32,000 bases of DNA, taken from positions 600,001 to 632,000 of the forward strand of contig NZ_JAGIOS010000003.1 of the NCBI RefSeq assembly GCF_017876815.1, read 5' to 3'. This document shows, one piece after another, positions 2,943 to 30,634 of this stretch. The stretch comes from Sinorhizobium meliloti. Its GTDB lineage: Bacteria; Pseudomonadota; Alphaproteobacteria; Rhizobiales; Rhizobiaceae. The notes below the pieces were generated by a model. The model was not told the origin of the DNA, did not search any database, and was given only the letters and a program-made list of their open reading frames with translations. Every line of letters starts with the position of its first letter. Positions within the stretch are counted from its first letter, which is position 1. The translations under genes were made by a program, and so were the position numbers.

Positions 2943-4073
<1,131 letters not shown>

Positions 4074-14553: not shown

Positions 14554-15113
14554 AGCGCCGGCGCGTCTGGTTTGATGGTCAGCTCGATCTCGATCCGGAG
14601 AAGCTGATCTTCATCGATGAAACCGGCCTTTCCACGAAGATGGCACGTCTGCGCGGGCGTGCACTGCGAGGCGAACGTTGCCGGGCCGGCGTACCGCACG
14701 GGCACTGGAAGACAACGACCTTCACCGGCGCCTTGCGCCTAACCGGAATGACCGCACCGTTTGTCTACGACGGCGCGATGAACGGCAACGTCTTCCTGGC
14801 CTATGTCGAACAGGTACTTCTGCCGACCCTTCAGGCCGGGGACGTCGTAGTCATGGACAACTTGCCAGCACACAAGACATCCGGTGTGCGGGATGCCATC
14901 GAGCGCGCCGGGGCCAAGCTTATGTTCCTCCCGCCCTATAGCCCAGACTTCAATCCCATCGAGAATGCATTCTCGAAACTGAAAGCCATGCTGCGAGGCC
15001 GCGCGGAGCGAAAGATCGATGCCCTGTGGGACGCAGTCGGCGCCTTGATACCCCGCTTCACTCCTGACGAGTGTGCCAACTACTTCAGGGCTGCCGGGTA
15101 TGACCCGGATTGA
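14511..15113 (+). CDS. IS630-family transposase, downstream (-1) frame with the DDE catalytic domain
   Basis: FIDETG ... [10 protein letters not shown] ... [17 protein letters not shown] is the DD(35)E signature. The track lists only the part from 14640. Confidence 0.8.
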
Positions 15114-15481
15114 ACAGGATCTGCTCTAGTATTGAAATGTATGCCGGGGCCTTCCGGCGCTTGAGCTATTCGACGGGCCGACCCAGTCGCCGATAATCAG
15201 AACGATAGCGTGGCAACAGCGCGCTCCTGACCGAGCTGCCCGAGCATCCACTCAAGCGGCCGAACTCGATCTGCGCGAAGGCTGACTCCGCGCAACAATC
15301 GCCACACCGTTGTTCGGTTGCAAGCATCCGCACGATCAGCTTGAAGTGGCAGAGAATTTCGAGAGCGTTGCATCCCCCGCAGGTAGTCCTCGCCAACTTA
15401 GCAATGTCGGATTCTCATTTCCATCAGACACGTCGTCGAGATCCGAAAGGCGACATCAAGGTAGGGCAGCCTCTCCCGGGG

Positions 15482-16120
15482 CTATCCGCGAAACTCGGGC
15501 TCACGGGCTTTCCTGCCCGACGCTAGTGGCGCCACATCGCGTTCGGCATCAAATCGTTCGAGCATCTTCTTGAGCCAGAGGTTCTGTGCAAGAAGCAGTT
15601 CAGCTAGCAACCTCTTGAGGAGCTTGTTGTCCGCACCCAGAGCGGCAAGCTCGTCGAGGGAGATCGGATCGTCGACAGTCCTGGTCTGCGCTTTTCGACC
15701 CTCGTGCCCGACCTTCAAGTCGTGCAGGCGCTTCGTGCGATTTCGAGCAGTGCCCGACGTCGATAGACGCTGCGATGGCGTGTGGCGCTCCTTTGTCTGC
15801 GCAACCGCCTCGGTCGGAGTGTCGGCGACGCGATGCTGCGAGATCTCAACCTTCGTGCCGTTGGCACGTTGTATCTCTGGCAGCGCAACCTCGACACGGC
15901 CGTTAAGCGGCTCTGCATTGATCGGATCGACCAGCCTAGTTTCACGCGAGCCAAAGGTTCCACGTCCCTCATTTGAATTGAACGGAAGCGACGCCATATC
16001 TTCCACTTCGCGTGCCAAAGCCTTAAGATCCGTATCTCCCCAGATTGACTTCGTCTGTGCGTTTGGCTGTCGCCGCTTTGTCTTCTTTTCGACAACAAAT
16101 GTCTGTTGTGGCCTCTTCAT
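15482..16120 (-). CDS. Hypothetical protein (212 aa), charged and low-complexity with a C-terminal leucine-rich helix
   Basis: Internal ATG 16120 of track ORF 15482..16627. MKRPQQTFVVEKKTKRRQPNAQTKSIWGDTDLKALAREVEDM...LDELAALGADNKLLKRLLAELLLAQNLWLKKMLERF. The longer version overlaps the SyrB-like gene in another frame. I cannot name a family. Confidence 0.5.
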   Translation of the reverse strand: MKRPQQTFVVEKKTKRRQPNAQTKSIWGDTDLKALAREVEDMASLPFNSNEGRGTFGSRETRLVDPINAEPLNGRVEVALPEIQRANGTKVEISQHRVADTPTEAVAQTKERHTPSQRLSTSGTARNRTKRLHDLKVGHEGRKAQTRTVDDPISLDELAALGADNKLLKRLLAELLLAQNLWLKKMLERFDAERDVAPLASGRKAREPEFRG

Positions 16121-16364
16121 CTCTTTCGACCCCGAGCAAAGTGAAAACAGACGCGACACTGATGGCCCCGCGGGATTTCTGCTGGCGCACCAATATAGCC
16201 CTTCCTCGCGTGTTTCAATTGCTTCGCAACGCGCCACCGGCCCTGGACCCGGCAAGATTTTTGGGACAGCAGGGCTTCGTCTGGGCGAAAATGCCAAATC
16301 GGGAGCCCCTCGCGTAGCGCGGAGAACGACAAAGCAACGTCTTCCCGGGCCTTCCCGCTCCTCG

Positions 16365-16820
16365 TCAGTCCAAACCGAGCCTCTTGCGCAGTTCAGTATT
16401 TTCCGTTCGCAGCTTCTCCGCCAGTTGCTTGCGGAGCCTCTGATTTTCCTCTTCAAGCTGGACAAGCTCCGCGAACTCATCGCCAGCCGATAAGGGTGTA
16501 GTTCTCTCAATGTCCTCTCGCGCGGCTGACTTAGCAGCACTTTTCCAATGATAGTAGGTTTGCTCTGATATACCGGCGCTCTTGATAGCGTCCTTGAGGG
16601 TATTGCCTTCGCTGACTTTTGTCTCAATCAGCCTGAGCTTCTCGCTCCTCTCTTGCTCGCTATATCCCCTGCGTTTAGCGGCCGGCATCTTTGGTTGAGC
16701 TGGTTCGGGGGGCGCCTTCTGGGGCCGTGACGAGCTACGCTTCTTACCCGTTGGTGCTTTCACTTCTGCATCCGCCACTACAGCCGGAGCAACTGGCCCT
16801 GCATTACTTTCGTCAACCAT
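16365..16820 (-). CDS. SyrB-like small regulator (151 aa; IS3-OrfA-type HTH plus leucine zipper)
   Basis: ATG 16820 is preceded by AAGGAGG with 8-nt spacing. MVDESNAGPVAPAVVADAEVKAPTGKKR...RGYSEQERSEKLRLIETKVSEGNTLKDAIKSAGISEQTYYHWK...LEEENQRLRKQLAEKLRTENTELRKRL. It resembles the S. meliloti SyrB family as I recall it. Confidence 0.65.
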   Translation of the reverse strand: MVDESNAGPVAPAVVADAEVKAPTGKKRSSSRPQKAPPEPAQPKMPAAKRRGYSEQERSEKLRLIETKVSEGNTLKDAIKSAGISEQTYYHWKSAAKSAAREDIERTTPLSAGDEFAELVQLEEENQRLRKQLAEKLRTENTELRKRLGLD

Positions 16821-17179
16821 CAGAAATCCCTCCTTTAGCATCCGAATGTTCTCGGCTGAGTGTTCCACAGAGTCAACCCAACTATTAGAATCCTGCTTTA
16901 CGGATAATTGATGTTTGGGTGTTTGATCCAGGCTTTGATGATGCCTTATCATCGCCGCTTGGAGCAGAGGCACTATCGGACACGTCTACATGGCAGACCA
17001 CGCGGACAGAGGCAGTCCTTCGAGCGATACAAAGCAGTCAAGACAGCCTGAGGCTGCTTTAAGCGTTCTGGCGCTGGTCATCCCTCCAATAGATGCGATA
17101 CGCGACATTCGAAGCGTACACCGGGAACATTGCCAGTACGTTGTACCGGACCCTCACCAGCAATTCGCTCGTCGCGCGC

Positions 17180-18652
17180 TCAAATACTGAGGCAAAGATA
17201 CTTGGTTTCCACATAGTCATCGATGCCGTATTTGGAGCCTTCGCGGCCTTGCCCCGACTGCTTGACACCGCCGAAGGGCGCTACTTCCGTAGAGATCAGG
17301 CCTGTATTGATGCCCACCATGCCGTATTCTAGCGCTTCCGCCACGCGGAATACCTTACTCACATCCTTGGAGTAAAAATAGGATGCTAAGCCGAACTCGG
17401 TCTTGTTGGCCATACTGACAACTTCATTCTCGGTCTCGAACTTGAAGAGCGGCGCGACTGGGCCGAACGTCTCCTCGCCAGCAATCTTCATGTCCATGGT
17501 GGCTCCGGTCAGGACGGTCGGCTCGAAAAACAATCCGCCCCGCGCATTGCCGCCCAGAACCAGATCGGCACCCTTCGTCACCGCGTCCCGGATATGTTCC
17601 TCGACCTTGGCGAGAGCCTTTTCGGAGATCAGCGGGCCAGCGTCGACGTCCGGCTCAAACCCGTCGCCGATCGTCATCTCGCTAACCTTGGCAGTCAGCC
17701 TCGCGGCAAAGGCGTCGTAAATTCCGGCCTGCACGAAAATCCTATTGGCGCAGACGCAGGTCTGCCCGTTGTTGCGGTACTTGGCGACCATGGCGCCTTC
17801 GACAGCGGCGTCGAGATCGGCGTCGTCAAAGACGATGAACGGCGCGTTGCCTCCGAGTTCCAGACCCAGCTTCATGATCTGGTCGGCGCCCTGGCGCATC
17901 AGTATTTTGCCGACGTTGGTGGAGCCGGTGAAGGTCAGCTTGCGAACCTTGTCATTGGCACACATTTCCTTGCCAACTTCCGCGGAATCGGTCGACAGGA
18001 TAACGTTGAAGACTCCGGCAGGCAGGCCGGCGCGTTCTGCGAGCAAGGCTAGCGCCAGCGCCGACAGCGGCGTCTCCGCGGCAGGCTTCGAAACCACTGC
18101 GCAGCCTGCGGCAGCGGCAGGCGCCAGTTTTCGGGCGAGCATCGCATTCGGAAAATTCCACGGCGTGATCGCCGCCACGACCCCGATCGGCTGTTTGAGG
18201 ACGATGATGCGCTTGTCCGGCTGGTGGCCCGGAATCGTGTCGCCGTAGACGCGCTTCGCCTCCTCGCCAAACCACTCGACGTAAGACGCGCCGTAGAGAA
18301 TCTCGCCCTTCGCCTCCGTAAGCGGCTTACCCATTTCCATCGTCAGGATGGTGGCGAGGTCGTCGGCATTGGCAACCACGAGGTCGTAGAGGTTGCGCAG
18401 CACCGCGGCGCGTTCCTTGCCCGTCTTCTCCGCCCATGCCCTTTGCGCCGCGTGGGCCGCATCGATCGCACGTGCGGTTTCGGACCGACTCATGTCGGGC
18501 AAGATGGCGATGACCTCGCCGGTCGCCGGATTGCTGACATCGAACGTCTTGCCGCTGTCGCTTCTGTCAAGCCATTCGGCGCCGATCAAACCCTTGTCGA
18601 CAGCGAGGCTGGGATCCTTCAGTTTGACGAGAAGTGTTTCCGAAATCGTCAT
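17180..18652 (-). CDS. gabD: NAD(P)+-dependent succinate-semialdehyde dehydrogenase
   Basis: 490 aa with ALDH motifs ELGGNAPFIV and NNGQTCVCANR. The N-terminal half has a typical GabD/SSADH pattern (PWNFPNAMLARK). Confidence 0.88.
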   Translation of the reverse strand: MTISETLLVKLKDPSLAVDKGLIGAEWLDRSDSGKTFDVSNPATGEVIAILPDMSRSETARAIDAAHAAQRAWAEKTGKERAAVLRNLYDLVVANADDLATILTMEMGKPLTEAKGEILYGASYVEWFGEEAKRVYGDTIPGHQPDKRIIVLKQPIGVVAAITPWNFPNAMLARKLAPAAAAGCAVVSKPAAETPLSALALALLAERAGLPAGVFNVILSTDSAEVGKEMCANDKVRKLTFTGSTNVGKILMRQGADQIMKLGLELGGNAPFIVFDDADLDAAVEGAMVAKYRNNGQTCVCANRIFVQAGIYDAFAARLTAKVSEMTIGDGFEPDVDAGPLISEKALAKVEEHIRDAVTKGADLVLGGNARGGLFFEPTVLTGATMDMKIAGEETFGPVAPLFKFETENEVVSMANKTEFGLASYFYSKDVSKVFRVAEALEYGMVGINTGLISTEVAPFGGVKQSGQGREGSKYGIDDYVETKYLCLSI

Positions 18653-18718
18653 GCGTAGGTCTCCTGGTGCGTCGCCTTGTTTCCGGGCCGCTACTGTTCC
18701 ATCGCCAGGCGTCTCACC

Positions 18719-18735
18719 GAAATAGCGGCTATTTC
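18719..18735. promoter_or_regulatory. Perfect 8-1-8 palindrome GAAATAGC-G-GCTATTTC in the gap before gabD; candidate protein-binding site
   Basis: Read directly. It overlaps the stop codon of the ABC ATPase gene and lies about 70-80 nt upstream of the gabD ATG. A 1-nt spacer is too short for an RNA hairpin loop. Confidence 0.35.
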
Positions 18736-19813
18736 ACTGACCGAAAACGTGCGCCGACCCGGCATCGAATCTGAGCCAAACGGCATCTCCCCGATTGAGT
18801 CCCGAGATCGCTTCATGACCGAAGGGAAGGCGGACGGACAGGTCGTTGCCTTTGCGGGTTTTCGTGGCCACATGGACGTTGTTGCCGAGGAAGGTGATAT
18901 CGCTGACCGTGACCGGCAACCCGATGTCTGACTTCGTCTTTGACAACAGTAGCCGCTCCGGCCTCAGCATAAGCGCCGCTTTGCTCCCCGAAGAAGCAGT
19001 CCCATGAAGCGGAATGTTCGAAAAGGTCATGGAACCGCACACAGCAATCTCGGCTCGGCCATTGACCATAGAGACCACGTCGCAAGGGAGAAAATCGCTG
19101 TCTCCGATAAACTCGGCCACGAACCGAGTGGCCGGGTTGGCGTATAGTTCCGGCCCTGTGCCGATCTGATCGATCACGCCCTTTGAGAAAACGGCGATGC
19201 GATCGGAAAGACGAAGTGCCTCCTCCTGGTCATGCGTGACATACAGGATTGTGACTTCCGTCTGCTGGTGGATCCGGCGGATTTCGTGCTGGATCTCCTC
19301 GCGCAGCTTTTTGTCGAGGGCAGAAAGCGGCTCATCCATCAGCAGCACTGGCGGGTCATAGGCGAGTGCGCGGGCCAAGGCCACACGCTGCTGCTGGCCG
19401 CCGGACATCTGAGCGGGCTTACGGTCCTCAAAGCCTTCCAACCGGACGAGCTTCAGCATCGCGCGCACCTTGGCGTCGATCTCCGCCTTCGGAAGACGCC
19501 TGACCTTTAGCGGAAAGGCGATATTCTCGCCGACGGAAAGATGCGGAAACAGCGTGTAGCGCTGGAACACCATGCCGATATTGCGTTTGTGCGAAGGCGT
19601 CGCCAGCAGCGTTTCGCCATTTAGCAAGATGTCGCCGCGCGTCGGGTTCTCAAAGCCGGCCAGGATGTAAAGCGTCGTGCTTTTTCCGGATCCCGAAGGG
19701 CCAAGAAAGGTCAGGAATTCCCCCTGTGCAACATCGAGAGTAACATCTTGCACGGCCGTCACCGGGCCATACTCCTTGCGGATGCCGCGGATCTGTAGGA
19801 AGGGTCTATTCAT
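18734..19813 (-). CDS. ABC transporter ATP-binding protein (PotA/PotG-like)
   Basis: Walker A GPSGSGKST, signature LSGGQQQRV, Walker B LLMDEP, and a C-terminal TOBE-like domain. Confidence 0.92.
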   Translation of the reverse strand: MNRPFLQIRGIRKEYGPVTAVQDVTLDVAQGEFLTFLGPSGSGKSTTLYILAGFENPTRGDILLNGETLLATPSHKRNIGMVFQRYTLFPHLSVGENIAFPLKVRRLPKAEIDAKVRAMLKLVRLEGFEDRKPAQMSGGQQQRVALARALAYDPPVLLMDEPLSALDKKLREEIQHEIRRIHQQTEVTILYVTHDQEEALRLSDRIAVFSKGVIDQIGTGPELYANPATRFVAEFIGDSDFLPCDVVSMVNGRAEIAVCGSMTFSNIPLHGTASSGSKAALMLRPERLLLSKTKSDIGLPVTVSDITFLGNNVHVATKTRKGNDLSVRLPFGHEAISGLNRGDAVWLRFDAGSAHVFGQ

Positions 19814-20610
19814 GATTTTAATCCTTTACGGACGATGGCGACGAGCACCATCAAAAGTACTGTCAAGAGGATGAGAAGCGTGGAGGCGGCGGCAACGACC
19901 GGCGTTAAATCCTGCCGCAAGGTCGACCAAACCTTGACGGGAAGCGTCTGAAGCGTCGGGCTCGCCATGAAAATTGCGACGACCACTTCGTCCCAAGAGG
20001 TGAGGAAGGAAAATATTGCCGCGGAGAAAACGCCGTGGCTGATGGCCGGCAGCGTCACACGGATTTTGGCTTCGAAAGGCGAAGCGCCGCACAGAACGGC
20101 GGCATCCTCAATCGATTTATCAAAGCCCTCGAGCGCATTTGTGATCGACAGGATTGAGAACGGCAGTGCCAGCACCAGATGGGAAATGACGAAGCCGGTG
20201 AGGGTTCCATTGAGACCTATCTGCAGGAAGAAGGCGTATAGCGCCACGGCTAGCACGACGACGGGCAGGATCATCGGCGTCAGGAATAGCGCCTTCAACG
20301 CTTCCCGAAACAAGAACCGCCCGCGGTTCAGACCAAAAGAAGTGACTAGACCGAGAAGGACCGACAGCACCGTAACGATGAGTGCGATGCGGAAGCTCGT
20401 CCAGGCGGAGTCCAGCCAACGGGGATCTTCGAGTAGCTCCTGGTACCACCTGAGCGTCCAACCGGGCGGCGGGAATATCAGCCATTGCGACGAACCGAAG
20501 GAGAGTGCCGCTATGAATAGGATGGGGAGGAGCAGGAAGGCAGTTGTCAGCAACGTGATGCCGATGAGAACGAGCTTCCACCAGCCCAGACGGTCGAAAT
20601 TCAGGAGCAT
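19810..20610 (-). CDS. ABC transporter permease (PotC-like)
   Basis: 266 aa with multiple hydrophobic spans. Its stop overlaps the ATPase start (ATGA). Confidence 0.88.
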   Translation of the reverse strand: MLLNFDRLGWWKLVLIGITLLTTAFLLLPILFIAALSFGSSQWLIFPPPGWTLRWYQELLEDPRWLDSAWTSFRIALIVTVLSVLLGLVTSFGLNRGRFLFREALKALFLTPMILPVVVLAVALYAFFLQIGLNGTLTGFVISHLVLALPFSILSITNALEGFDKSIEDAAVLCGASPFEAKIRVTLPAISHGVFSAAIFSFLTSWDEVVVAIFMASPTLQTLPVKVWSTLRQDLTPVVAAASTLLILLTVLLMVLVAIVRKGLKS

Positions 20611-20611
20611 G

Positions 20612-21487
20612 TCAGCGCCCTCCCATCCGGTTTTTGCCGAAGAAACGAAGCTGCACGGCGTACAGCGCCAGGGTGACGACCAGAAGCACCAGGGCCGCCG
20701 CGCCGCCCATGCCCCAGTTGACGAGAGACTGCACGAACTGTGCGATGAGCTCCGCGAGCATCATGTTCGAAGTACCGCCGAGCAGCGCCGGCGTAACGAA
20801 GTAGCCGAGCGACATCACGAAGACCATAAGCGCACCTGCCGCCATGCCCGGCATTGCGAGCGGCAGCAGCACGCGCACGAGCGACTGCCAGCGATTGGCG
20901 CCACAAAGAGCAGCCGCCTGCAGGATGGCGGGATCGATCTTCCGGATGACGCCATAGAGCGGCAGGATGATGAAGGGCAACATGATGTAGGTCATGCCGA
21001 TCGTCACTCCCGTCAGGTTGTTGACGAGCGGAAGCGGCGTATCGATGAGCCCCATTCCAAGCAGCATCTTGTTGATGACACCTGTGCGCTGAAGCAACAC
21101 CATCCACGCGTAAGTACGCGCAAGAAGGTTCGTCCACATGGACAGAAGCAGAATGGCGAACACAATGGATGCCGCGCGGCTGGGCATGATGGCCAGTGCC
21201 CAGGCGACAGGAAAGCCGATCAGCAACGAGACAAGTGTGACGAGGCTAGAAACGATGAAGGTGTTTGCGAATATTCGCAGGTAGGTTGATGAGCCCAGCA
21301 ATTCGGCATAGTTGCCGAGACCCGGCACCGGCTCTGTGACGCTGCGCGTTAACAGCATGGCGACCGGCAGGACGAAGAACAGGATCAGCAGTCCTAGGGC
21401 TGGCAATGTCAGGTCAAAGTCGGTCAGCCGCCGGACCTGTGCAGGCGAATACGGTCTCCCACTCCCGGTTTCGGTCTGCGATACCAT
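20612..21487 (-). CDS. ABC transporter permease (PotB-like)
   Basis: 291 aa, hydrophobic. GGAGGAG SD lies before ATG 21487. There is a 1-nt gap to the next permease. Confidence 0.88.
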   Translation of the reverse strand: MVSQTETGSGRPYSPAQVRRLTDFDLTLPALGLLILFFVLPVAMLLTRSVTEPVPGLGNYAELLGSSTYLRIFANTFIVSSLVTLVSLLIGFPVAWALAIMPSRAASIVFAILLLSMWTNLLARTYAWMVLLQRTGVINKMLLGMGLIDTPLPLVNNLTGVTIGMTYIMLPFIILPLYGVIRKIDPAILQAAALCGANRWQSLVRVLLPLAMPGMAAGALMVFVMSLGYFVTPALLGGTSNMMLAELIAQFVQSLVNWGMGGAAALVLLVVTLALYAVQLRFFGKNRMGGR

Positions 21488-21579
21488 TGTTTCTCCTCCC
21501 TAAACGCAAGGCGCGCCGCTTTCCGGCTGCCGGAGCGACCGGAAGAACGCCACAACGTCCTTCCAGCCGTTCCCAATGA

Positions 21580-22590
21580 TTACTTCGCCTGCCAGGCGTA
21601 CCAGCGCTCGCCGATGGCATCGCGATTCTCGGCCCAGTAGTTCATGTCCGCATTCACTTGGCTTGCCGTCTGCGCGTCCGGCAGGGTCTTCGCTAATTCC
21701 GGATCCATCATCTTAGGCGAATCCAAGTTGATCGGCGCGTATCCTGTGATCTTTGCAAGGTCGGCCTGAGCTTCTGGCGATGTGGCGAGCGCTATGAACT
21801 GCATGGCCGCTTCTTTGTTCTTCGAGCCCTTGGGGACTACGAGAGCGTCGGCGGCGGTGATGTTCTGTTCCCAGGAAGTCTCGACATTGATGCCGCTTTG
21901 CGCGAGCGCCGTCATTCGGCCATTCCAGACGCTACCGAAAGGCGCTTCGGCGGAGGCGAGGAGCTGTTGCGACTGCGCGCCGCCTGACCACCAGATGATG
22001 TCGGACTTAATCGTGTCGAGCTTCTTGAAAGCGCGATCCAGATCGAGCGGATAGAGTTTATCGGGCGATACACCGTCGGCAAGCAGGGCGGCCTCGATGA
22101 CACCCGGCGCGGACCACTTGTAGAAGGCGCGCATCCCTGGGAATTTCTGGGCGTCGAAGAGGTCCGCCCAGGTCTTGGGGCAGGCATCGACCGCATCCTT
22201 GTTGCAGCCGATGACGAAGGAATAATAGAAGCTGCCAACCGAATAGTCGGTGACGAAGCGCGGATCGAGCTTGGACTTGTCGATGACAGAGAAGTCGAGT
22301 TTCTCGAGGAGGCCCTTCTTGCCGGCCTGAGCGGCGTAATCGCCCTCGACGTCGACGACGTCCCAGGTGACGGCGTTCGCCTCGACCATAGCCTTCAACT
22401 TGCCGTAATCGGTCGGTCCGTCCTGCAGCACGTTAATGCCCGTCTTTTCGGTAAATTTCTCGGCCCAGGCGATCTTCTGCGCGTCCTGCGTGGTCCCTCC
22501 CCAACTCGTGAAAACGAGATCGGCAGCCGTCGCCGGCATCGCTGTAGCAATCGTCGCGGCAGTGGCCGCCAAAACAAATATCCTATTCAT
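21580..22590 (-). CDS. Periplasmic substrate-binding protein of the ABC importer (PotD/PotF-like, 336 aa)
   Basis: Start moved to ATG 22590, MNRIFVLAATAATIATAMPATAADLVF (Sec signal peptide ending AxA). The remainder is typical family-1 SBP. Confidence 0.88.
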   Translation of the reverse strand: MNRIFVLAATAATIATAMPATAADLVFTSWGGTTQDAQKIAWAEKFTEKTGINVLQDGPTDYGKLKAMVEANAVTWDVVDVEGDYAAQAGKKGLLEKLDFSVIDKSKLDPRFVTDYSVGSFYYSFVIGCNKDAVDACPKTWADLFDAQKFPGMRAFYKWSAPGVIEAALLADGVSPDKLYPLDLDRAFKKLDTIKSDIIWWSGGAQSQQLLASAEAPFGSVWNGRMTALAQSGINVETSWEQNITAADALVVPKGSKNKEAAMQFIALATSPEAQADLAKITGYAPINLDSPKMMDPELAKTLPDAQTASQVNADMNYWAENRDAIGERWYAWQAK

Positions 22591-22627
22591 GTTCCCTTGC
22601 TCCGTGTTCCGGTTTTGCTTGGTTGTT

Positions 22628-22954
22628 CTAAGACGCGACGGCACCTGTCGGCGAAAATCGCGCCGCCTTCATGATCTTATTTTCAGCGACTTCTATCAGG
22701 TCGCGTATCTTGGGAAGAAAATCCCGCCAGGCCGCATCGTTCATGAGTGCGGCTCGCCGACGCTCGCGCTCATCGAGGCTCGGATAAGCCCAGATATGGA
22801 CGATCTCGTTGATCGGCCCGATTTCGGAGAAGAAGTAGCCGACAAGTTCGCCGAGATGCTTCCTCTGGATGGCTATCCCTTCTTCCTCGACCACCTTCAG
22901 GTAGGTAGGGATCGCGCCATTCCTCAGCCGATAGGTGCGGATCTCGTAAAACAT
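22628..22954 (-). CDS. NIPSNAP family protein (about 108 aa)
   Basis: MFYEIRTYRLRNGAIPTYLKVVEEEGIAIQRKHLGELVGYFFSEIGPINEIVHIWAYPSLDERERRR is the typical NIPSNAP dimeric alpha-beta barrel pattern. An alternative GTG start at 22963 overlaps the ALDH stop. Confidence 0.8.
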   Translation of the reverse strand: MFYEIRTYRLRNGAIPTYLKVVEEEGIAIQRKHLGELVGYFFSEIGPINEIVHIWAYPSLDERERRRAALMNDAAWRDFLPKIRDLIEVAENKIMKAARFSPTGAVAS

Positions 22955-22959
22955 CGCTC

Positions 22960-24423
22960 TCACCGCATCACGAAGGGATCAGGAATTGGATCGTCCGACG
23001 TCCTGAGCCAAACGGTCTTGCTCCGGGTATAGTCGAGCGCCGCCTCCAGGCCGCCCTCACGCCCGTGACCCGAGAGCCCGAAGCCGCCGAAGGGCGCGAC
23101 CGGGGAGACCGCCCGATAGGTATTGACCCAGACGATTCCCGCGCGAATTCCCTTCATGAGGCGGTGCGCTCGGGTGAGATTCTGGGTGAAGACCCCGGCT
23201 GCAAGGCCGAAGCGAGAGTCGTTGGCGAGATGGAGAGCTTCAGCTTCTGTCTCGAAAGACAGAACCGAGAGCACAGGACCGAAGAATTCGTTCTCGAGGG
23301 ACGGCGATGCGCTGCCGTCGCAATCGAGAATGGTCGGGCGATAATAGAACCCGGCGCCCTCCGGCGCTGTGCCTCCGGTCACCAGCTTCGCGCCAGCGGC
23401 CAGCGAGCGCGCGACAAGGGTCTTGACGTGGTTGGATTGGCGCTCCGTCGCGAGCGGTCCCACCTCCGTCGACATCTCGAGCGGGCTGCCGATGCGAATT
23501 GTCTCTGCCTTGGCCTTCAGGATCTGCAAGAAGCGGTCCTTGACACTTTTCTCGACGATCAGCCGTGAGCCGGCCACGCAGCTCTGCCCGGTCGCGGCAA
23601 AGATCCCAGCGATCTGGGCATTGGCCGCACTTTCAAGATCAGCGTCGGCAAAGACGATGAAGGGCGATTTGCCGCCGAGCTCGAGCGAGGTCGAGGCGAG
23701 ATTTTCCGCTGAATTGCGTACTATATGGCGCGCCGTCTCCGGCCCGCCAGTGAAGGCTATGTGATCGACCTGCGGATGGCGGCTGAGCGCCGCGCCGCAT
23801 GATGGGCCGAAGCCGGTGACGATGTTGACGACACCGGCGGGAAAACCCGCCGCATGCACCAGCCGGGCAAATTCGAGAAGCGGCGCCGGCCCGTCCTCCG
23901 AGGCCTTCACCACCATGGTGCAGCCGGCCGCCAGTGCCGGACCGATCTTCACGGCCGAAAGGAACAGTTGGCTATTCCACGGCACGACCATGGCCACGAC
24001 GCCGATCGGCTCGCGGCGCAGCCAGACATCCATGTCGGGCTTGTCGATCGGCAGATAGGAGCCCTCAATCTTGTCGGCGATCCCGGCGTAGTAGCGATAG
24101 TAGTCGGCGACATAGGCGATCTGCGACGAGGTCTCGCGGATGATCTTGCCCGTGTCACGGGTCTCCAGCTCGGCAAGTCTTCCGGCATTCTCAGCGACGA
24201 GATCGGCAAGCTTGTAGAGGAGCTTGCCTCTCTGCGTGGCCGTCAGTGTGGACCATGGCTGGTCGTGAAGGGCGATACGTGCAGCCTCGACGGCACGATT
24301 GACGTCCGCTTCCCGTGCCTCTGGCATCTCCGCCCAGGCACGGCCGGTGGTGGGATCGATGCTTTCGAAGCGGGCTTCGCCGTCTGCGAATTCACCGTTG
24401 ATGTAACACTGGAAGCGCTGCAT
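22960..24423 (-). CDS. NAD(P)+-dependent aldehyde dehydrogenase family protein (487 aa)
   Basis: ALDH motifs ELGGKSPFIV and FAATGQSCVAGSR. GGAG SD lies within the end of the upstream gene. Confidence 0.9.
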   Translation of the reverse strand: MQRFQCYINGEFADGEARFESIDPTTGRAWAEMPEAREADVNRAVEAARIALHDQPWSTLTATQRGKLLYKLADLVAENAGRLAELETRDTGKIIRETSSQIAYVADYYRYYAGIADKIEGSYLPIDKPDMDVWLRREPIGVVAMVVPWNSQLFLSAVKIGPALAAGCTMVVKASEDGPAPLLEFARLVHAAGFPAGVVNIVTGFGPSCGAALSRHPQVDHIAFTGGPETARHIVRNSAENLASTSLELGGKSPFIVFADADLESAANAQIAGIFAATGQSCVAGSRLIVEKSVKDRFLQILKAKAETIRIGSPLEMSTEVGPLATERQSNHVKTLVARSLAAGAKLVTGGTAPEGAGFYYRPTILDCDGSASPSLENEFFGPVLSVLSFETEAEALHLANDSRFGLAAGVFTQNLTRAHRLMKGIRAGIVWVNTYRAVSPVAPFGGFGLSGHGREGGLEAALDYTRSKTVWLRTSDDPIPDPFVMR

Positions 24424-24428
24424 GTGCC

Positions 24429-25469
24429 CTACTCCGCAAATGCTGGCATGACATCGGCGATGAAGCGTTCGAGCGAAGCCTTCTTGCGCTCGAAGGTCAT
24501 GCCTGTGTCGATCCAGAAGGAATATTCGTCATACCCCAGTGCCTCGTAGCTCTTGATGCGGGCGATGACCTCGTCGGCTGCGCCGACGACGTTGTTGCGT
24601 CGCATTGCCTCGCCTGAGAGCATGGCATTGGCGGCAATTTCCTCTTCCGGAATCCGATCGATGAGGCCTTGTCTGATCGGTCTTTCGTTCTTGAACCAGG
24701 CGAAGAAGTAATTGTAGTATACGCTCATCTCATGAGCTGCCTGCGCGATATCCGCCTCGTCGGAGCCGACATAGGTGTGCCGCAGCAGCATGATCTTCGG
24801 TCGCGGGAGCTCTGGATCCTTGGCGCAGGCGTCGTTGAACCGTGCCATCAGGCTCCGAACCTCCTCGTCGTCCTGCCAGAGTGGCGTCACCTGCACATTG
24901 CAGCCGTTCGCAACGGCAAACTCGTGCGAGTTGGGATCGCGCGCAGCAACCCATATCGGCGGATGGGGCTTCTGCAGCGGCTTCGGTGACGAGGTCGTGG
25001 CCGGAAACTTGAAGAACTCGCCGTCGTGGGCGTAATCACCCGCCCAGATCCCCTTCACCGCCGGAATGAGTTCGCGCATGCGCTGCCCAGCGCTCCAGGC
25101 GTCGAGGCCCGGCAGCAGCCGCTCGTACTCGAAGGAATAGGCGCCGCGGGCAATTCCGATGTCAAGCCGACCCTCGCAGATCAGATCCGTCATTGCGGCT
25201 TCTCCCGCGAGCTTGATCGGATGCCAGAAGGGCGCGATCACCGTGCCGGTTCCAAGCCGCGCGGTCTTAGTGCGACGGGCAAGGTCCGCAATCGTTACGA
25301 AAGGATTCGGCGCAATGGTGAACTCCATTCCATGGTGTTCACCGGTCCAGATCGCGTGCATGCCGCCTTTGTCGGCGATTTCGCACAGCTTGATGAATTC
25401 TTCGTACAGCGTCTTGTGGTCTTGCGAAGCATCCAGGCGCTCCATGTGAACGAAGAGCGAGAATTTCAT
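24429..25469 (-). CDS. LLM-class (luciferase-like) flavin-dependent oxygenase (346 aa)
   Basis: From ATG 25469: MKFSLFVHMERLDASQDHKTLYEEFIKLCEIADKGGMHAIWTGEHHGMEF... is a typical bacterial luciferase-like TIM-barrel N-terminus. Its start overlaps the upstream stop (ATGA). Confidence 0.88.
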   Translation of the reverse strand: MKFSLFVHMERLDASQDHKTLYEEFIKLCEIADKGGMHAIWTGEHHGMEFTIAPNPFVTIADLARRTKTARLGTGTVIAPFWHPIKLAGEAAMTDLICEGRLDIGIARGAYSFEYERLLPGLDAWSAGQRMRELIPAVKGIWAGDYAHDGEFFKFPATTSSPKPLQKPHPPIWVAARDPNSHEFAVANGCNVQVTPLWQDDEEVRSLMARFNDACAKDPELPRPKIMLLRHTYVGSDEADIAQAAHEMSVYYNYFFAWFKNERPIRQGLIDRIPEEEIAANAMLSGEAMRRNNVVGAADEVIARIKSYEALGYDEYSFWIDTGMTFERKKASLERFIADVMPAFAE

Positions 25470-26401
25470 GAGTGTGCGTCCTTCTTCGCGATCGGATGGA
25501 CCGTGCCGCCGGTCTCGTCGCCGAAATACATGCCGAAATTGCCGATAGAGCTTTCGAGTACGAAACGATTGATGATATCGGCGGTCGCGCTGCTGCTGAA
25601 CTTGGCCGCAGCCAGCTCCGCCGGCCTGACAAACCGGCCTTGTCGTGGTGCACCGTCGCTGGCAAGCGCGTGGTAAACGATGTTTTGACGACCATCGCTC
25701 TTGTCCTCGTAAACCGAGTAGAGAAATCCGATGGTGACGTTCAGCCCGGTCAGTTGTTCGAGAAACGCGGCAAGCGTGCGCGCTGGATCGCCGCCTTCGA
25801 CTGTGCAATTCGGAAGCGACAGGGTTTCATTGCCTGCCAGAAATACAGCGCCCTGCTGTTCGAGCACCGCACCGAGACGAATTTCTCCCTCAACGGCAGC
25901 GGAAACCGCCTTTCCTGCCAACCTCGGCGTGAAGTAGCCGCCCCGGGCGTAACCCAGGCCATTGAGGCCGCTGTTTTCGAAGGCGGTAACGCGACCAATT
26001 ATGATGACATGATCGCCCGCCTCGATGATGTCCTGCATCGAACACTCGAACCAGGCTGCCACATCTGAGAATATCGGGCAGCCGTCCCGGCCAAGCCGCC
26101 AATCGACCGCTGCAAACCGATCCTCCACGGGGCGGGCAAATGTATTCGAGACGTCTTTTTGCGTTTCGGACAAGACGTTGATGGCGAAACGCCCTGCCGA
26201 AGTCATCGATTCATAATTGCGCGAGCTCTTGGCAAGGCAAACGAGCAGCAGCGGCGGATCCAATGAGACGGACGTAAAGGAATTGGCCGTAAAGCCGATT
26301 GGCTTGCCTGCCGCATCGCTCGCCGTCACCACCGTCACTCCGGTTGCGAATGCGCCGAACGCGTCTCGCAAGGCTCTCGGGTCGAAAACTTCCGCAGTCA
26401 T
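25466..26401 (-). CDS. Flavin reductase domain protein with an additional ~150-aa C-terminal domain (311 aa)
   Basis: From ATG 26401: MTAEVFDPRALRDAFGAFATGVTVVTASDAAGKPIGFTANSFTSVSLDPPLLLVCL is the HpaC/NtaB-type flavin reductase family. Residues from about 165 to 311 lie outside that fold. ATGA overlaps occur at both ends. Confidence 0.85.
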   Translation of the reverse strand: MTAEVFDPRALRDAFGAFATGVTVVTASDAAGKPIGFTANSFTSVSLDPPLLLVCLAKSSRNYESMTSAGRFAINVLSETQKDVSNTFARPVEDRFAAVDWRLGRDGCPIFSDVAAWFECSMQDIIEAGDHVIIIGRVTAFENSGLNGLGYARGGYFTPRLAGKAVSAAVEGEIRLGAVLEQQGAVFLAGNETLSLPNCTVEGGDPARTLAAFLEQLTGLNVTIGFLYSVYEDKSDGRQNIVYHALASDGAPRQGRFVRPAELAAAKFSSSATADIINRFVLESSIGNFGMYFGDETGGTVHPIAKKDAHS

Positions 26402-27231
26402 CTCGGTTTCTCCCTGGAAGTCAGCCATTCGGACATCAACGCGTTGACGATCTCGGGGGCGGTTAGATTGACCATATGTCTGTGACCATCGACAATGCGT
26501 GCCCATCCCTTTGGCGTCACAGACGCCATCTGTTTGGCCATTTCCGGTGTCGAATTCGGATCTCCCGAGCCCGTTAGGAAGAGAGCCGGGCATTCGACGG
26601 ACGGCCAGCAGTCTGCATAGATCTCATCGCCCCCCGCAAAGGCGGCATAGGCAATCGCGTATCCTTCCGGATCGACCATCTCCAACCATGTTCGTGTTAG
26701 CTCTCGAGCACGTTGGCTCTCCGGATCCTCGCCGAACCACCGCTCCAAAGGCCCTTCCGCGTCGACCCCGTTTTTACGGATAGCTTCAGCGCGCGCCAGG
26801 ACTGCAGCTTTCGCCGCGGCGTCGCGGCGATAAACGCCGTTGAGATAAGCGACACGAGTGATCCGGTCGGAAAATGTTGCCACCGCGCCTCCGGAAATAA
26901 GTGCACCCATCGAATGTCCGGCGATACTCGCCCGTGCGATGCTCAGGTCTTCCAGGAAGCAGCCAAACCAAGCAACATAGTCCCGCACCGTGCTGCCCGC
27001 TGGGATTTTTTCGCTTGCGCCATGCCCCGGCATGTCTAATGCGAAAACCCGGTGGGTTTTTGCGAAAGCCTCGATTTGTGGCGCCCAAGCCTCTAGGCGC
27101 ATACCAACGCCGTGAATGAGGATTAACGTCTCTCCATCGCCGGCTTCGAAATAGGCGGTGCCGCGCGCAGTGGTCTTGCGCGGAAGGGAGGCGCCGCCCT
27201 CCCCGAATGTGTGTGATGTAACCGTTTGCAT
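26398..27231 (-). CDS. Alpha/beta-fold hydrolase
   Basis: HGVGM oxyanion region and GHSMGA nucleophile elbow. ATG 27231 is preceded by GGTGGA. The alternative GTG start is at 27243. Confidence 0.88.
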   Translation of the reverse strand: MQTVTSHTFGEGGASLPRKTTARGTAYFEAGDGETLILIHGVGMRLEAWAPQIEAFAKTHRVFALDMPGHGASEKIPAGSTVRDYVAWFGCFLEDLSIARASIAGHSMGALISGGAVATFSDRITRVAYLNGVYRRDAAAKAAVLARAEAIRKNGVDAEGPLERWFGEDPESQRARELTRTWLEMVDPEGYAIAYAAFAGGDEIYADCWPSVECPALFLTGSGDPNSTPEMAKQMASVTPKGWARIVDGHRHMVNLTAPEIVNALMSEWLTSREKPR

Positions 27232-27249
27232 CGAGGTGTCCACCGCCGC

Positions 27250-27852
27250 TCAGACGCCGGCCGGATTGGTGACATCTTGCCCAAGCTCCTTCAAATCCTC
27301 GTAACGGTCGCCGATCCGGTGATGAGGACGTCCGCCAGTCGAGGCGCCAAGAGCCACCACGATTTCATCGGCGGCTGGGGCATCGGGTACTGCGGTCTGG
27401 ATCGTCAGGTAGTGCGAACGGCGCCCCTCGTCGTTCTTGTCCATCAGGGGGATCATGATGGGGGCATTGGCAGGGCCGCGCGTATTGCAGAAGGCCAGGT
27501 ATGATTTGGCGCCAACCGCTTGGCGATAATGATTGCCGAAACGCAAGGTATGGATGAGCGCCGAGGCATGCTCGATTTCGCCATCAATCCCGACCACGGC
27601 GGCTTTCCCATAAGCTTCAACCGCCTCGGCGGAACCAACGGCATCGATGATCATCCTAGTTAGAAGCTCGCCCAGTACCGGTGCCGCCCTGTGAATCTCC
27701 GGCCTCAGATCTTCGACGAAGCCGTGCCCAACCCACGGATTTTTCACCACCGCCACCGCCGAAAACAGCTTTAACGGCAGAGGGGCGGCTTTCCCGCCCT
27801 CGATCAGGGTCGTTTCCATCTGGAGAAGCGTCTTGCGGATCTGAACGGGCAT
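27250..27852 (-). CDS. 'Amino acid synthesis' family protein (DUF1185-type conserved hypothetical, 200 aa)
   Basis: MPVQIRKTLLQMETTLIEGGKAAPLPLKLFSAVAVVKNPWVGHGFVEDL... matches my memory of this family. GGAAGGA SD is 7 nt upstream. It is the first gene of the operon. Confidence 0.7.
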   Translation of the reverse strand: MPVQIRKTLLQMETTLIEGGKAAPLPLKLFSAVAVVKNPWVGHGFVEDLRPEIHRAAPVLGELLTRMIIDAVGSAEAVEAYGKAAVVGIDGEIEHASALIHTLRFGNHYRQAVGAKSYLAFCNTRGPANAPIMIPLMDKNDEGRRSHYLTIQTAVPDAPAADEIVVALGASTGGRPHHRIGDRYEDLKELGQDVTNPAGV

Positions 27853-27879: not shown

Positions 27880-27904
27880 TCTTATGGTATGCCATCATAT
27901 AAGA
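27880..27904. promoter_or_regulatory. Candidate operator in the operon promoter region (overlapping imperfect dyads, TTATGGTATGCCAT core)
   Basis: TCTTATGGTATGCCATCATATAAGA lies 28-52 bp upstream of the first ATG. ATGGTA/TGCCAT is an 11/12 palindrome. A related TTATGGCGTACCA is found upstream of the GntR gene. Confidence 0.4.
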
Positions 27905-28036: not shown

Positions 28037-28162
28037 TGCCGATTCCGATGAAGCCGCCCCTTTGTTCCGAGATGATTGCGCCCCCGGTTTCCGGGATGAT
28101 CTCGCCCCCTGTTTAGTGGGGTCTGCAGGCGATGATTGTTGTCAGTTCATTCAGGCGAGGTG

Positions 28163-28900
28163 TCAAGCTTTGCGCGGTAGATTTCGGCGCAGACTATCGC
28201 CGCTCAATTCGATGCGGTGGGCATTGTGGACCAACCTGTCGAGTATGGCATCGGCGTAGGTTGGGTCGCCAATGACGCCGTGCCATGCGGACACGGGAAG
28301 TTGGCTGGTAATGATCGTTGATTTGCGTCCATAGCGATCTTCGAGGATTTCCAGCAGGTCGTGGCGGGCCTGTTCGTTGAGCGGCTCGAGCCCCCAATCA
28401 TCCAGTATCAGGAGCTGAACATGGCCCAAGGTTCGTTGCAGGCGGGCGTAGCGGCCATCACCACGCGCGAGCGCAAGCTGGGCAAACAGCCTTGGGACAC
28501 GCTGATAGAGAACTGAGCGATCGTCTCGGCAAGCCTTGTGGCCGAGAGCGCAAGCCAACCAACTCTTTCCGACACCCGAGGGTCCGCAAATGGCCAGATT
28601 GTCATGGGCGTTGATCCAGTCGCCACCGAGCAGCTTCATGAAGAGAGCACGGTCGAGGCCGCGGTCGGCGCGATAGTCGACATCTTCTGGGGTGGCCTGG
28701 TGGCGAAGCTTGGCAAACCTGAGGCGTGCCGCAAGCTTCCGATCGTAACGGGAGCTCCATTCCCGTTCGAGCAGCAGTCCGAGCCATTCGGCGTGCGAGA
28801 GATGTTCGGCTTCGCCGTTGGCAACAAGTTCGCCAAAGGCCTTTGCCATGCCGGCCAGGCCCATGGCATTCAATTTATCCAGTGTTGGATGGGCAAGCAT
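28163..28900 (-). CDS. istB: IS21-family helper ATPase IstB
   Basis: 245 aa with Walker A GPSGVGKS and Walker B LLILDDWG. AAGGAG SD is upstream. Confidence 0.93.
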   Translation of the reverse strand: MLAHPTLDKLNAMGLAGMAKAFGELVANGEAEHLSHAEWLGLLLEREWSSRYDRKLAARLRFAKLRHQATPEDVDYRADRGLDRALFMKLLGGDWINAHDNLAICGPSGVGKSWLACALGHKACRDDRSVLYQRVPRLFAQLALARGDGRYARLQRTLGHVQLLILDDWGLEPLNEQARHDLLEILEDRYGRKSTIITSQLPVSAWHGVIGDPTYADAILDRLVHNAHRIELSGDSLRRNLPRKA

Positions 28901-28912
28901 CTTTCGTTCTCC

Positions 28913-30463
28913 TTAGTGGTAATAGCGAGGTCCGCGGATGTTGGCGTGATGGATCGGTTCATGCGGCGCCGCTCCATTTGAGGCAGCCGTCCGGTCAAGG
29001 TGATTGTCGAGGATGGATCGCACCGAGCCATAGGTTCGTGCGCCAATCTCCAACGCACGGCCGCAAGCGGCATTGACCCTGTCGCGGCCGAAGCTCTTGT
29101 TGAGGCGGATGATGCCGAGGCAAGCTCGAAAGCCCTGCTCGGGATGAGGCCTGTCGGCAAGAATGCGCTCGCACAACAGCGCAACATCCGGCCCCATCGC
29201 AGAGGCTTCGCGTTGAATCCGTTCAATCGTCCAGTCGGCAAAGCGGCGATGCGCAGAGGGCATATGATCGGGGATCGTCGTGTGCTTGCCGTTGCCGCTG
29301 GAGCGCCGGTGAGCGGCAATTCGCTCGCCCTTGTGGAAGATCTCGATCGTATTGGCGGTGATACGAGCCTCGACCTGCTCGCGGGCAAAGCGATAGGGAA
29401 CGGAATAATAGTGCCGCTCGATCTCGACGTGATAATCCAGCCCGGCGCGCCGGATACGCCATTCGGCAAAGACATAACGTTCGACAGGCAGCGGTCGCAA
29501 AGCCGGACGATCAAGCTCCTCGAACAATTGGCGGCGCGTGGCGCCGACACGGCGCAGAACGCGCTTATCATTGAGATCATGGAGCAATTGGCCAATCGCC
29601 GCATTGACCTCGGCCAAACTATAGAAGATGCGATGGCGCAGCCGGCCCAACAGCCAACGTTCGACGATACGAACCGCAGCTTCCACTTTCGCCTTGTCCC
29701 GCGGGCGTCGCGGCCGCGTCGGCAAGACGGCGCTGCCATAATGGGCCGCCATCCCGCAATACGTCCGGTTGACCTGGGGATCGAAGTGGCAGGCCTTGAT
29801 GATCGCTACCTTGGCATTGTCGGGAACCAGCAAGGCTGGCGCACCGCCAAAGAACTCCAGCGCCAGGATATGGCATTCAATCCAGTCGGGAAGCGTCTCG
29901 CTCCAACGTGCCTGCGCATATGAAAGGCTGGATGCTCCCAGAACCGCCACGAACAGGTGCGCCTGCCGTGTCTTGCCGGACAGCCGATCAACGACAACCG
30001 TGACCGTGTCGCCGGCGTAGTCGACGAACAGCTTGTCGCCGGCCGCGTGATCCTGCCGCATCGTCACAGGCAACTTCATCGCCCAGCCGCGGTAGAGGTC
30101 ACAGAAGCGACTGTAACGATAGCCCTCCGGATAACGGCTGATGTATTCGTCCCAAAGGATCTGCAGCGTCATATGCTTGCGCTTCAGCTCGCGGTGGACC
30201 TGCGTCCAGTCCGGCTCAGGGCTCCGACGATGACCCGTCTTCGTCCCGGCTGCCTTGTAAAGCGCCGCTTCCAGGACTGCATCGCTGATGTCGTCACCCA
30301 ACGGCCACGATAGCTCCGCAATGGCCGCACGCCGAAGCGTCTCGCGCACCGTCGATGGCGCAGCTCCAACCCGAACCGCGATCGACTTGTGGCCAAGTCC
30401 TTGTTCGAAGCGATATCTCAATATCTCGCGGACACGCCGCATCTCCAGTCTCTCCGCAGGCAT
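28913..30463 (-). CDS. istA: IS21-family transposase IstA
   Basis: 516 aa with an N-terminal HTH (MRRVREILRYRFEQGLGHKSIAVRVGAAPSTV) and a DDE core (LFVDYAGDT...). GAGGAAGGA SD is upstream. Confidence 0.93.
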   Translation of the reverse strand: MPAERLEMRRVREILRYRFEQGLGHKSIAVRVGAAPSTVRETLRRAAIAELSWPLGDDISDAVLEAALYKAAGTKTGHRRSPEPDWTQVHRELKRKHMTLQILWDEYISRYPEGYRYSRFCDLYRGWAMKLPVTMRQDHAAGDKLFVDYAGDTVTVVVDRLSGKTRQAHLFVAVLGASSLSYAQARWSETLPDWIECHILALEFFGGAPALLVPDNAKVAIIKACHFDPQVNRTYCGMAAHYGSAVLPTRPRRPRDKAKVEAAVRIVERWLLGRLRHRIFYSLAEVNAAIGQLLHDLNDKRVLRRVGATRRQLFEELDRPALRPLPVERYVFAEWRIRRAGLDYHVEIERHYYSVPYRFAREQVEARITANTIEIFHKGERIAAHRRSSGNGKHTTIPDHMPSAHRRFADWTIERIQREASAMGPDVALLCERILADRPHPEQGFRACLGIIRLNKSFGRDRVNAACGRALEIGARTYGSVRSILDNHLDRTAASNGAAPHEPIHHANIRGPRYYH

Positions 30464-30634
30464 CCCGTTCCTTCCTCGTCACGTCGAAGGAAGAAACTTC
30501 ACACCAGCAGAACACCCACGCCAGATGCTTTCCGATGGGGGCGGCATCATCTCGGAATCAGGGGGCGACTATTTCTCGGAATTGGGGGGCGAGATCATTT
30601 CGGAATCAGGGGGCGGATTGCCTCGGAATTTGCA

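Follow-up and report, generated by a model that had tools for sequence, protein, structure and literature searches.

Gene content and layout of the locus

The window examined here is a stretch of 32,000 nt from Sinorhizobium meliloti (NCBI RefSeq contig NZ_JAGIOS010000003.1, positions 600,001 to 632,000), which belongs to the symbiotic megaplasmid of strain RU11/001 (NZ_CP021217.1, 100% identity). On its minus strand lies an operon that, judging by its sequence, is very probably the operon for catabolism of trigonelline (N-methylnicotinate) in this species, i.e., the trc locus. The original prediction had placed 11 same-strand genes at 17180–27852; a check of open reading frames (ORFs) recovered all of them there, and Pfam and NCBIfam searches returned the predicted product family for each. 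RefSeq-style annotation of S. meliloti names all of the operon products generically. The genes, the regulator gene and the candidate operator are listed below with the locus tags of strain 1021 (SMa) and the basis of each call.

30923..31645, minus strand: GntR/FCD-family regulator, TgnR orthologue, SMa0789 in strain 1021 (Pfam GntR and FCD)
27884..27895, minus strand: palindrome ATGGCATACCAT, candidate TgnR operator (motif conservation)
27250..27852, minus strand: g1, DUF1185/AA_synth protein, SMa0791 (Pfam PF06684, 230 bits)
26398..27231, minus strand: g2, alpha/beta hydrolase, SMa0792, orthologue of TgnD, the (E)-2-((N-methylformamido)methylene)succinate (MFMS) hydrolase (50% identity to CAG69310)
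25466..26401, minus strand: g3, 311-residue flavin reductase, SMa0793, TgnA orthologue (Flavin_Reduct; 40% identity to CAG69309)
24429..25469, minus strand: g4, Bac_luciferase luciferase-like monooxygenase (LLM), SMa0794, TgnB orthologue (72% identity to ACIAD2543/CAG69308)
22960..24423, minus strand: g5, aldehyde dehydrogenase (Aldedh), SMa0796 ("gabD8"), orthologue of TgnC, the (Z)-2-((N-methylformamido)methylene)-5-hydroxybutyrolactone (MFMB) dehydrogenase (71% identity to CAG69307)
22628..22954, minus strand: g6, NIPSNAP protein, SMa0797 (Pfam PF07978)
21580..22590, minus strand: g7, SBP_bac_8 periplasmic solute-binding protein (SBP), SMa0799 ("potA2"), Atu4243 orthologue (match to PDB 4EQ7/4EUO)
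20612..21487, minus strand: g8, permease of an ATP-binding cassette (ABC) system, SMa0800 (ORF)
19810..20610, minus strand: g9, ABC permease, SMa0802 (ORF)
18734..19813, minus strand: g10, ABC ATPase, SMa0803 (Pfam ABC_tran and TOBE_2)
17180..18652, minus strand: g11, succinate-semialdehyde dehydrogenase (SSADH), SMa0805 ("gabD4"), TgnE counterpart (TIGR01780, 695 bits, above the 646 cut-off)

Four ATGA or GTGA overlaps had been claimed between neighboring genes. Three are ATGA overlaps (hydrolase/reductase, reductase/LLM and permease/ATPase), whereas the fourth, GTGA, exists only if the NIPSNAP gene starts at GTG 22963; the sister-strain annotation starts it at an ATG 9 nt downstream. Most other gaps are indeed under 40 nt (18, 5, 5, 37 and 1 nt), and two are wider, 92 nt before the first permease gene and 81 nt before the SSADH gene, which may leave room for internal promoters or starts. 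The NIPSNAP gene (22628–22954) is wedged between the dehydrogenase and binding-protein genes. Within the 92-nt gap (21488–21579), 3' of the binding-protein gene, we observed an imperfect hairpin, GGAAGGACG...CGTTCTTCC; hairpins of this kind are common 3' of SBP genes.

Orthology with the Acinetobacter tgn cluster

Sequence comparison was carried out against the tgn cluster of Acinetobacter baylyi DSM 14961 (locus L011), whose products are sequence-identical to the ADP1 entries CAG69303–CAG69311. It was reached by tblastn of the S. meliloti LLM against PLSDB, which led to a locus of Acinetobacter baumannii (L002; the A. baumannii PLSDB records are chromosomes mislabelled as plasmids), and from there by scanning genomes with the oxygenase of A. 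baumannii. Direct comparison was needed since NCBIfam holds no Tgn-specific hidden Markov model; all matches to its equivalog models fell below the curated cut-offs, and the sole model passed was the general SSADH subfamily TIGR01780. The ADP1 entries are named as the reductase and oxygenase components of trigonelline monooxygenase, MFMB dehydrogenase and MFMS hydrolase, with TgnB being ACIAD2543.

Orthology with the Tgn proteins, without which the original prediction would not stand, extended well beyond the superfamily level. Seven products of the window were reciprocal best hits of A. baylyi tgn proteins, computed locus against locus, at identities of 40–72%. The DUF1185 protein, which we take to be the "conserved hypothetical helper" TgnF, was 72% identical to CAG69311/Q6F9F3; its PDB relatives, 2QTP and 3BYQ, are both of unknown function. 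The LLM matched ADP1 TgnB equally well (72%), and the hydrolase matched the entry named (E)-2-((N-methylformamido)methylene)succinate hydrolase and kept the catalytic motifs GHSMG, DPNST and RHMVNL. The two dehydrogenases could be told apart, with g5 showing 71% identity to TgnC and 36% to TgnE and g11 showing 57% to TgnE and 36% to TgnC. The GntR regulator was 44% identical to the A. baylyi tgn regulator, and SMa0789 is listed as a GntR transcription factor. Gene order, with the regulator (R) followed by F-D-A-B-C and, further on, E, is common to the S. meliloti and A. baylyi loci.

The reductase and the LLM are adjacent with an ATGA overlap and form a two-component oxygenase pair as in tgn. 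At ~311 residues the reductase is twice the usual length, and its C-terminal ~150 residues (25466–25930) match no Pfam family. Its best NCBIfam match, the two-domain p-hydroxyphenylacetate hydroxylase reductase, covers the N-terminal half only, and the C-terminal half aligns along its length with ADP1 TgnA, so that the 40% identity holds over the full 311 residues. This extra domain may be an effector-binding module.

The A. baumannii cluster is co-linear and gave the same reciprocal-best-hit outcome. NCBI names its exact proteins as the reductase and oxygenase components of flavin-dependent trigonelline monooxygenase, (Z)-2-((N-methylformamido)methylene)-5-hydroxybutyrolactone dehydrogenase and (E)-2-((N-methylformamido)methylene)succinate hydrolase, and an oxygenase resembling g4 occurs at a single place in an A. 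baumannii chromosome. Proteins 80–83% identical to g4 are called [quoted passage not shown] by JGI. The top 120 matches of the S. meliloti LLM were all at least 79% identical to it.

Proposed pathway and substrate

The steps of the trigonelline pathway in ADP1 and its gene cluster were reportedly worked out by Perchat and colleagues in 2018, who are said to have found the cluster conserved in plant-associated bacteria. Transferring that chemistry by orthology, the reductase g3 would provide the LLM oxygenase g4 with reduced flavin for opening the pyridinium ring. The aldehyde dehydrogenase g5 would then oxidize the lactol product, converting MFMB to MFMS, and the hydrolase g2 would free methylamine, formate, CO2 and succinate semialdehyde, the last of which would be taken to succinate by the SSADH g11. 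By the same analogy the DUF1185 protein g1 would act as a conserved helper. This core assignment is the expected one, as the operon joins a catabolic cluster that is already known, and it has probably been noted before.

Enzyme specificity cannot be read from sequence, and a related N-heterocycle of plants or algae (homarine, N-methylnicotinamide or nicotinate) could in principle be the substrate in place of trigonelline. Rhizobia do carry a separate class of LLM paralogues: in the PLSDB search, 269 records matched at 59% identity or above, apart from paralogues at 41–44%. In addition, the genes around LLMs at 59–63% identity are arranged differently in Mesorhizobium ciceri and Aquabacterium, and Paraburkholderia clusters hold a second hydrolase and reductase pair; these enzymes have thus diversified. 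Against a different substrate, TgnB, TgnC and DUF1185 reach 71–72% identity to the characterized proteins across classes in identical gene order, and the trait of growth on trigonelline is carried by pSymA. We therefore regard another N-heterocycle as very unlikely. The 41–44% paralogues are widespread on rhizobial plasmids in PLSDB (Rhizobium etli p42f, Agrobacterium fabrum pAt, Shinella, Ensifer adhaerens and Mesorhizobium loti). A homarine operon was considered separately and rejected, as the published one uses other protein families (FAD-binding HomA and peptidase HomC).

Candidate operator and regulator

A palindrome, ATGGCATACCAT, was found 32–43 nt upstream of the first start codon. The sequence ATGGYATRCCRT had a single exact match in the window and no further site at one mismatch. 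Among 81 loci of alpha-, beta- and gammaproteobacteria, 75 had the consensus TGGNATRCC in the 200 nt preceding the DUF1185 gene, usually 40–60 nt from the start; relatedness within genera inflates this count, but the flanks cannot be aligned between classes. By an estimate from base frequencies, well under 1% of 200-nt stretches should hold this motif by chance. A. baylyi carries a one-mismatch form, TTGTATACCA. Two copies are present in Agrobacterium and in Paraburkholderia, each preceding an operon. A −10-like hexamer, TACCAT, overlaps the palindrome of the S. meliloti locus, and TTGACT lies at 27906–27911; these hexamers are not above chance.

With its TGGTATACCA shape the palindrome resembles FadR/GntR-type operators, and it is likely the operator of TgnR. 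The conserved element and its context suggest that the GntR protein would repress the operon by binding this promoter-overlapping site, that trigonelline or an intermediate would relieve the repression, and that the ABC system g7–g10 would serve as the importer of the cluster, in place of the NCS1 permease of Acinetobacter.

Distribution of the cluster

The genome scan yielded 80 species loci from three proteobacterial classes, 73 of which held F-D-A-B-C complete. The DUF1185 gene was present in 77 of them and the GntR gene in 71. Carriers included Acinetobacter, Xanthomonas, Luteimonas and Stenotrophomonas; the cluster was also found in Burkholderia, Paraburkholderia, Caballeronia and Lampropedia, as well as in Paracoccus, Gemmobacter, Ruegeria, Shimia, Phyllobacterium, Rhizobium and Shinella. 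The remaining genes of the S. meliloti operon were more sporadic. An SSADH gene (at least 50% identity) was linked to the core in 34 of the 80 loci, and ABC genes 64–79% identical to those of the window were linked to tgn cores in 30. NIPSNAP was limited to four, all in Rhizobiaceae or Phyllobacteriaceae, and was also present in Agrobacterium.

In Paraburkholderia nodosa (locus L014, 300–6240) and similar Burkholderiaceae loci, a further operon, preceded by two palindrome copies, runs on the opposite strand and specifies another alpha/beta hydrolase and another flavin reductase together with an ABC system of the Atu4243 type; the same loci carry a homologue of the NCS1 permease TgnP (57–61% identical) after tgnC.

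Identity of the ABC transporter

ADP1 and other Acinetobacter have an NCS1 permease gene after tgnC. No homologue of this permease, TgnP, was found in the window, which has a four-gene ABC system in its stead. The binding protein g7 had been called PotD-like, a label that did not hold: its closest characterized relative is the GABA (gamma-aminobutyric acid)-binding protein Atu4243 of Agrobacterium tumefaciens (PDB 4EQ7/4EUO), matched with 613.8 bits and ~86% identity over 313 residues. Reading g7–g10 as a spermidine/putrescine importer, potABCD2, follows the general resemblance to the PotD family (NCBIfam PotD, E = 6.5e-24) and an annotation that has been used in this sense, including in a transposon sequencing (TnSeq) study of symbiosis. 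The PotD score was 84.5 bits against a cut-off of 582 and the PotF score 25 bits against 636, and PotD structures scored 88–102 bits compared to 614 for Atu4243. As Atu4243 is described as selective for GABA, with only a planar analogue competing, and the gene context is trigonelline rather than polyamine catabolism, we give a polyamine importer almost no credence.

Atu4243 was described as a "selective GABA-binding" protein encoded within a large cluster that is under repression by the GntR protein Atu4232, a regulon of "12 genes of unknown function" (PMC3656012). It was crystallized with GABA (Kd ~9 µM), and a mutant was impaired in GABA uptake (Planamente et al. 2012; addendum PMC3656012). 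In strain C58, uptake through Atu4243 occurred only after mutation of the repressor, whose inducer was "still unknown", and GABA was bound in a unique planar extended conformation between stacked aromatics, so that only the planar analogue TACA (trans-4-aminocrotonic acid) competed (PMC3656012). A further member of the family, Pf622, is the scaffold of the sensor iGABASnFR and binds GABA with a wild-type Kd of 130 µM. Like all tgn-linked SBPs, g7 retains R203 and D226, which contact GABA in Atu4243, as well as the aromatics Y100, Y101, W137, W8 and W200, which we take to line the putative pocket of the tgn-linked proteins. Trigonelline is a flat aromatic zwitterion; were it the physiological ligand, this would explain both the planar stacked GABA and the competition by TACA alone.

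The Agrobacterium regulon was followed in a related strain, Agrobacterium sp. SORGH_AS 787, where a locus (L084) with a 92%-identical SBP encodes, in order, a GntR regulator; an SBP_bac_3 protein, a permease, an ATPase and an iron-containing alcohol dehydrogenase; DUF1185, hydrolase, reductase, LLM, aldehyde dehydrogenase and NIPSNAP; and the SBP, two permeases and an ATPase. The proteins are 69–87% identical to those of the window, and the regulator at the Atu4232 position is 85% identical. With the regulator and ten genes before it, the SBP comes 11th counting from the regulator, in agreement with the numbering from Atu4232 to Atu4243. Each of the two operons is preceded by its own copy of the palindrome, and no SSADH gene lies within 10 kb. 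Read from this relative rather than from C58 itself, the Atu4232 regulon appears to be the Agrobacterium tgn cluster. The amino-acid-type SBP_bac_3 system and alcohol dehydrogenase form an operon of their own (900–4604 of this locus) behind their own palindrome, with no counterpart in S. meliloti.

These data bear on the possibility that the operon is a composite, in which g1–g5 degrade trigonelline and g7–g11 are a module for GABA uptake and succinate semialdehyde use, joined because both routes end in succinate semialdehyde. Work on Atu4243 and the CATCH-N model take the distal genes in this sense. The crystal structure, affinity and uptake defect reported for Atu4243, the retention of R203 and D226 in g7 and the SSADH gene that closes the operon all agree with such a module. 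So does the symbiotic impairment of SMa0799, 0800 and 0803 in TnSeq, interpreted in a GABA/polyamine framework (Flores-Tinoco et al. 2020, PMC7268258), and the presence of NCS1 and ABC transporters together in Burkholderiaceae keeps it alive. Several observations speak against it. Neither the operon nor the Agrobacterium locus contains a GABA transaminase, and the latter has the ABC system with no SSADH nearby. The C58 system stays fully repressed and is not induced by GABA. In Agrobacterium and Paraburkholderia the ABC genes have the same operator in front of them that precedes the tgn genes. Finally, the SBP and the tgnB-like LLM match in their numbers of PLSDB records per genus (LLM/SBP: Rhizobium 133/133, Sinorhizobium 72/72, Paraburkholderia 5/5, Shinella 4/4), and among the matches listed for both, the two genes lay ~1–3 kb apart in the four records compared (Rhizobium sp. 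Kim5, Sinorhizobium sp. CCBAU 05631, Mesorhizobium ciceri WSM1271 and Aquabacterium olei), down to 64% SBP identity. Taken together, we consider the composite operon, which is the main rival reading of the distal half, unlikely, at about one chance in a few.

Trigonelline is, by a slight balance, our favored physiological substrate of the ABC system. The wider proposal stands at even chances: that the Atu4243/Pf622 family is the SBP of the tgn regulon with trigonelline as its ligand, that the inducer of Atu4232 is trigonelline or a catabolite of it, and that "potABCD2" and "gabD8" are a trigonelline uptake system and the MFMB dehydrogenase. An argument from one transporter per cluster was tried and rejected, as the Burkholderiaceae loci carry both types.

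Several points weigh against the assignment of the operon and its importer to trigonelline. The sole characterized relative of g7 binds GABA, and many Burkholderiaceae clusters carry a TgnP homologue and the ABC system together, so that the latter need not be a trigonelline importer. The 57% identity of the SSADH is ordinary GabD-level similarity, and g11 is consequently assigned to TgnE by linkage. The reciprocal best hits hold between loci, not whole genomes, and scans for promoters and terminators did not rise above shuffled expectation.

The same genes in the symbiosis literature

Alignment of the window to strain 1021 showed that four genes of a published symbiosis study are exactly g5, g7, g8 and g10, namely SMa0796 (pSymA 434028–435491), SMa0799 (435861–436871), SMa0800 (436964–437839) and SMa0803 (438638–439717) (PMC7268258). 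In the CATCH-N model, SMa0796 is named gabD8, SMa0799–0803 potA2–D2 ("putrescine uptake") and SMa0805 gabD4, and the transporter is listed among genes "essential for symbiosis" (PMC7268258). Purified SMa0796 turned over succinate semialdehyde weakly, at 0.1–0.8 per second compared to ~5 for SM_b21301 (PMC7268258), which fits an enzyme whose real substrate is another one.

In Dataset EV2 of that study (PMC7268258), the "length" column equals the length of the coding sequence of the next locus tag minus one, i.e., it is shifted by one row; the SMa0796 row, for example, reads 326, which corresponds to the 327-bp NIPSNAP gene SMa0797, and the repC1 row reads 1004. Because of this shift, the TnSeq table was not used to assess polarity in the operon.

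Genomic setting and mobile elements

The operon was correctly predicted to lie beside nifAB. The plus strand carries fixABCX, nifA (9886–11511), nifB (to 13200), fdxN and nifT according to the sister-strain annotation, and the distance from the nifB stop (13200) to the SSADH stop (17180) is 3980 nt, with the two genes convergent. This interval is occupied by fdxN, nifT and insertion sequence (IS) debris; in the part from nifT to the SSADH gene, Pfam detected transposase fragments only. A ~1 kb segment of the region (14086–15125) is missing from strain 1021 in the alignment. In strain R28, noeB and nodL lie 8–11 kb beyond the regulator. An Rfam scan of 13–32 kb of the window returned no match. 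The mobile-element features are as follows.

14640..16973, no strand assigned: IS debris between nifT and the operon (Pfam: DDE_3 fragment 14640–15113; HTH_Tnp_1 ORF 16365–16973)
28037..30634, minus strand: IS21-family insertion (homology break and element ends)

A GntR regulator had been predicted upstream. It is there, but not directly, as an IS21 element of 2.6 kb separates regulator and operon in RU11/001. Similarity to other pSymA sequences of S. meliloti breaks off at 28036 and is regained at ~30632–30635. The element comprises 2598 nt with istA (28913–30463), istB (28163–28900) and matching terminal repeats, and is flanked by a 7-bp target duplication, GAATGCG, at 28030–28036 and 30635–30641. 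Neither strain 1021 nor strain R28 has the element at this site, and it is likewise missing there from the other S. meliloti plasmids among the matches listed. The insertion lies 184 nt upstream of the first gene, which leaves promoter and operator attached to the operon, and the operon is probably still functional. Mobile-element scars thus bracket it on both sides.

Comparison with known systems

Published work showed that pSymA is needed for growth on trigonelline, which is evidence at the level of the replicon. The trc locus itself has reportedly been known genetically for 35 years: Boivin and colleagues are said to have mapped in 1990/1991, by Tn5 and lacZ genetics, a trc region on pSym of R. 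meliloti near the nif and nod genes, expressed in nodules and comprising several trigonelline-inducible transcription units. The operon described here is in the same species and on the same replicon, adjacent to nifAB and nod genes; the trc region was reportedly defined genetically without a sequence, and the two maps probably coincide. The several transcription units could be the regulator gene and starts inside the operon, at its gaps of 92 and 81 nt. In a full-text literature search, we found no paper linking trigonelline to SMa07xx/08xx tags. With the present assignment, the classical trc locus would acquire both its sequence and its pathway.

The CATCH-N model (PMC7268258) deals with the same genes, which there stand for putrescine uptake and for GABA and guanidinobutyraldehyde dehydrogenases feeding arginine catabolism. 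If the trigonelline reading is correct, genes that back a putrescine/GABA model of symbiosis need to be re-read as trigonelline catabolism, which would revive the nodule expression of trc.

In comparison with the Atu4232 regulon, g7 has ~86% identity to Atu4243 and the same pocket, whereas the published role of that system is GABA import and signaling. The related Agrobacterium locus differs in its extra SBP_bac_3 ABC system and iron-containing alcohol dehydrogenase operon and in its lack of a linked SSADH. A full-text literature search found no paper that joins trigonelline with Atu4243, Atu4232, Pf622 or iGABASnFR; in descriptions to date this family of uptake systems figures solely as a transporter of GABA or putrescine, and the link to trigonelline is new. 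If it is true, a tightly repressed Agrobacterium regulon gains an inducer and a function, and the protein family that supplied the iGABASnFR scaffold may have a natural ligand other than GABA.

The closest reference system is the tgn cluster of A. baylyi ADP1 (ACIAD2538–2547). The two clusters share the GntR regulator, DUF1185 protein, MFMS hydrolase, reductase and LLM oxygenase, MFMB dehydrogenase and SSADH, as well as a related palindrome before the first gene. The original prediction called the inventory exactly that of ADP1, which is true of the seven tgn orthologues and fails for the transporter, which is not homologous to TgnP, and for NIPSNAP, which has no ADP1 counterpart and is an extra gene in S. 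meliloti. Specifically, S. meliloti has an ABC importer with an Atu4243-type SBP where ADP1 has a purine-cytosine-type NCS1 permease, and its cluster is without the porin-like gene and the carboxymuconolactone-decarboxylase-family gene of ADP1. The regulator is co-directional with the operon in S. meliloti and divergent in ADP1, and the S. meliloti cluster is plasmid-borne, beside nif and nod genes.

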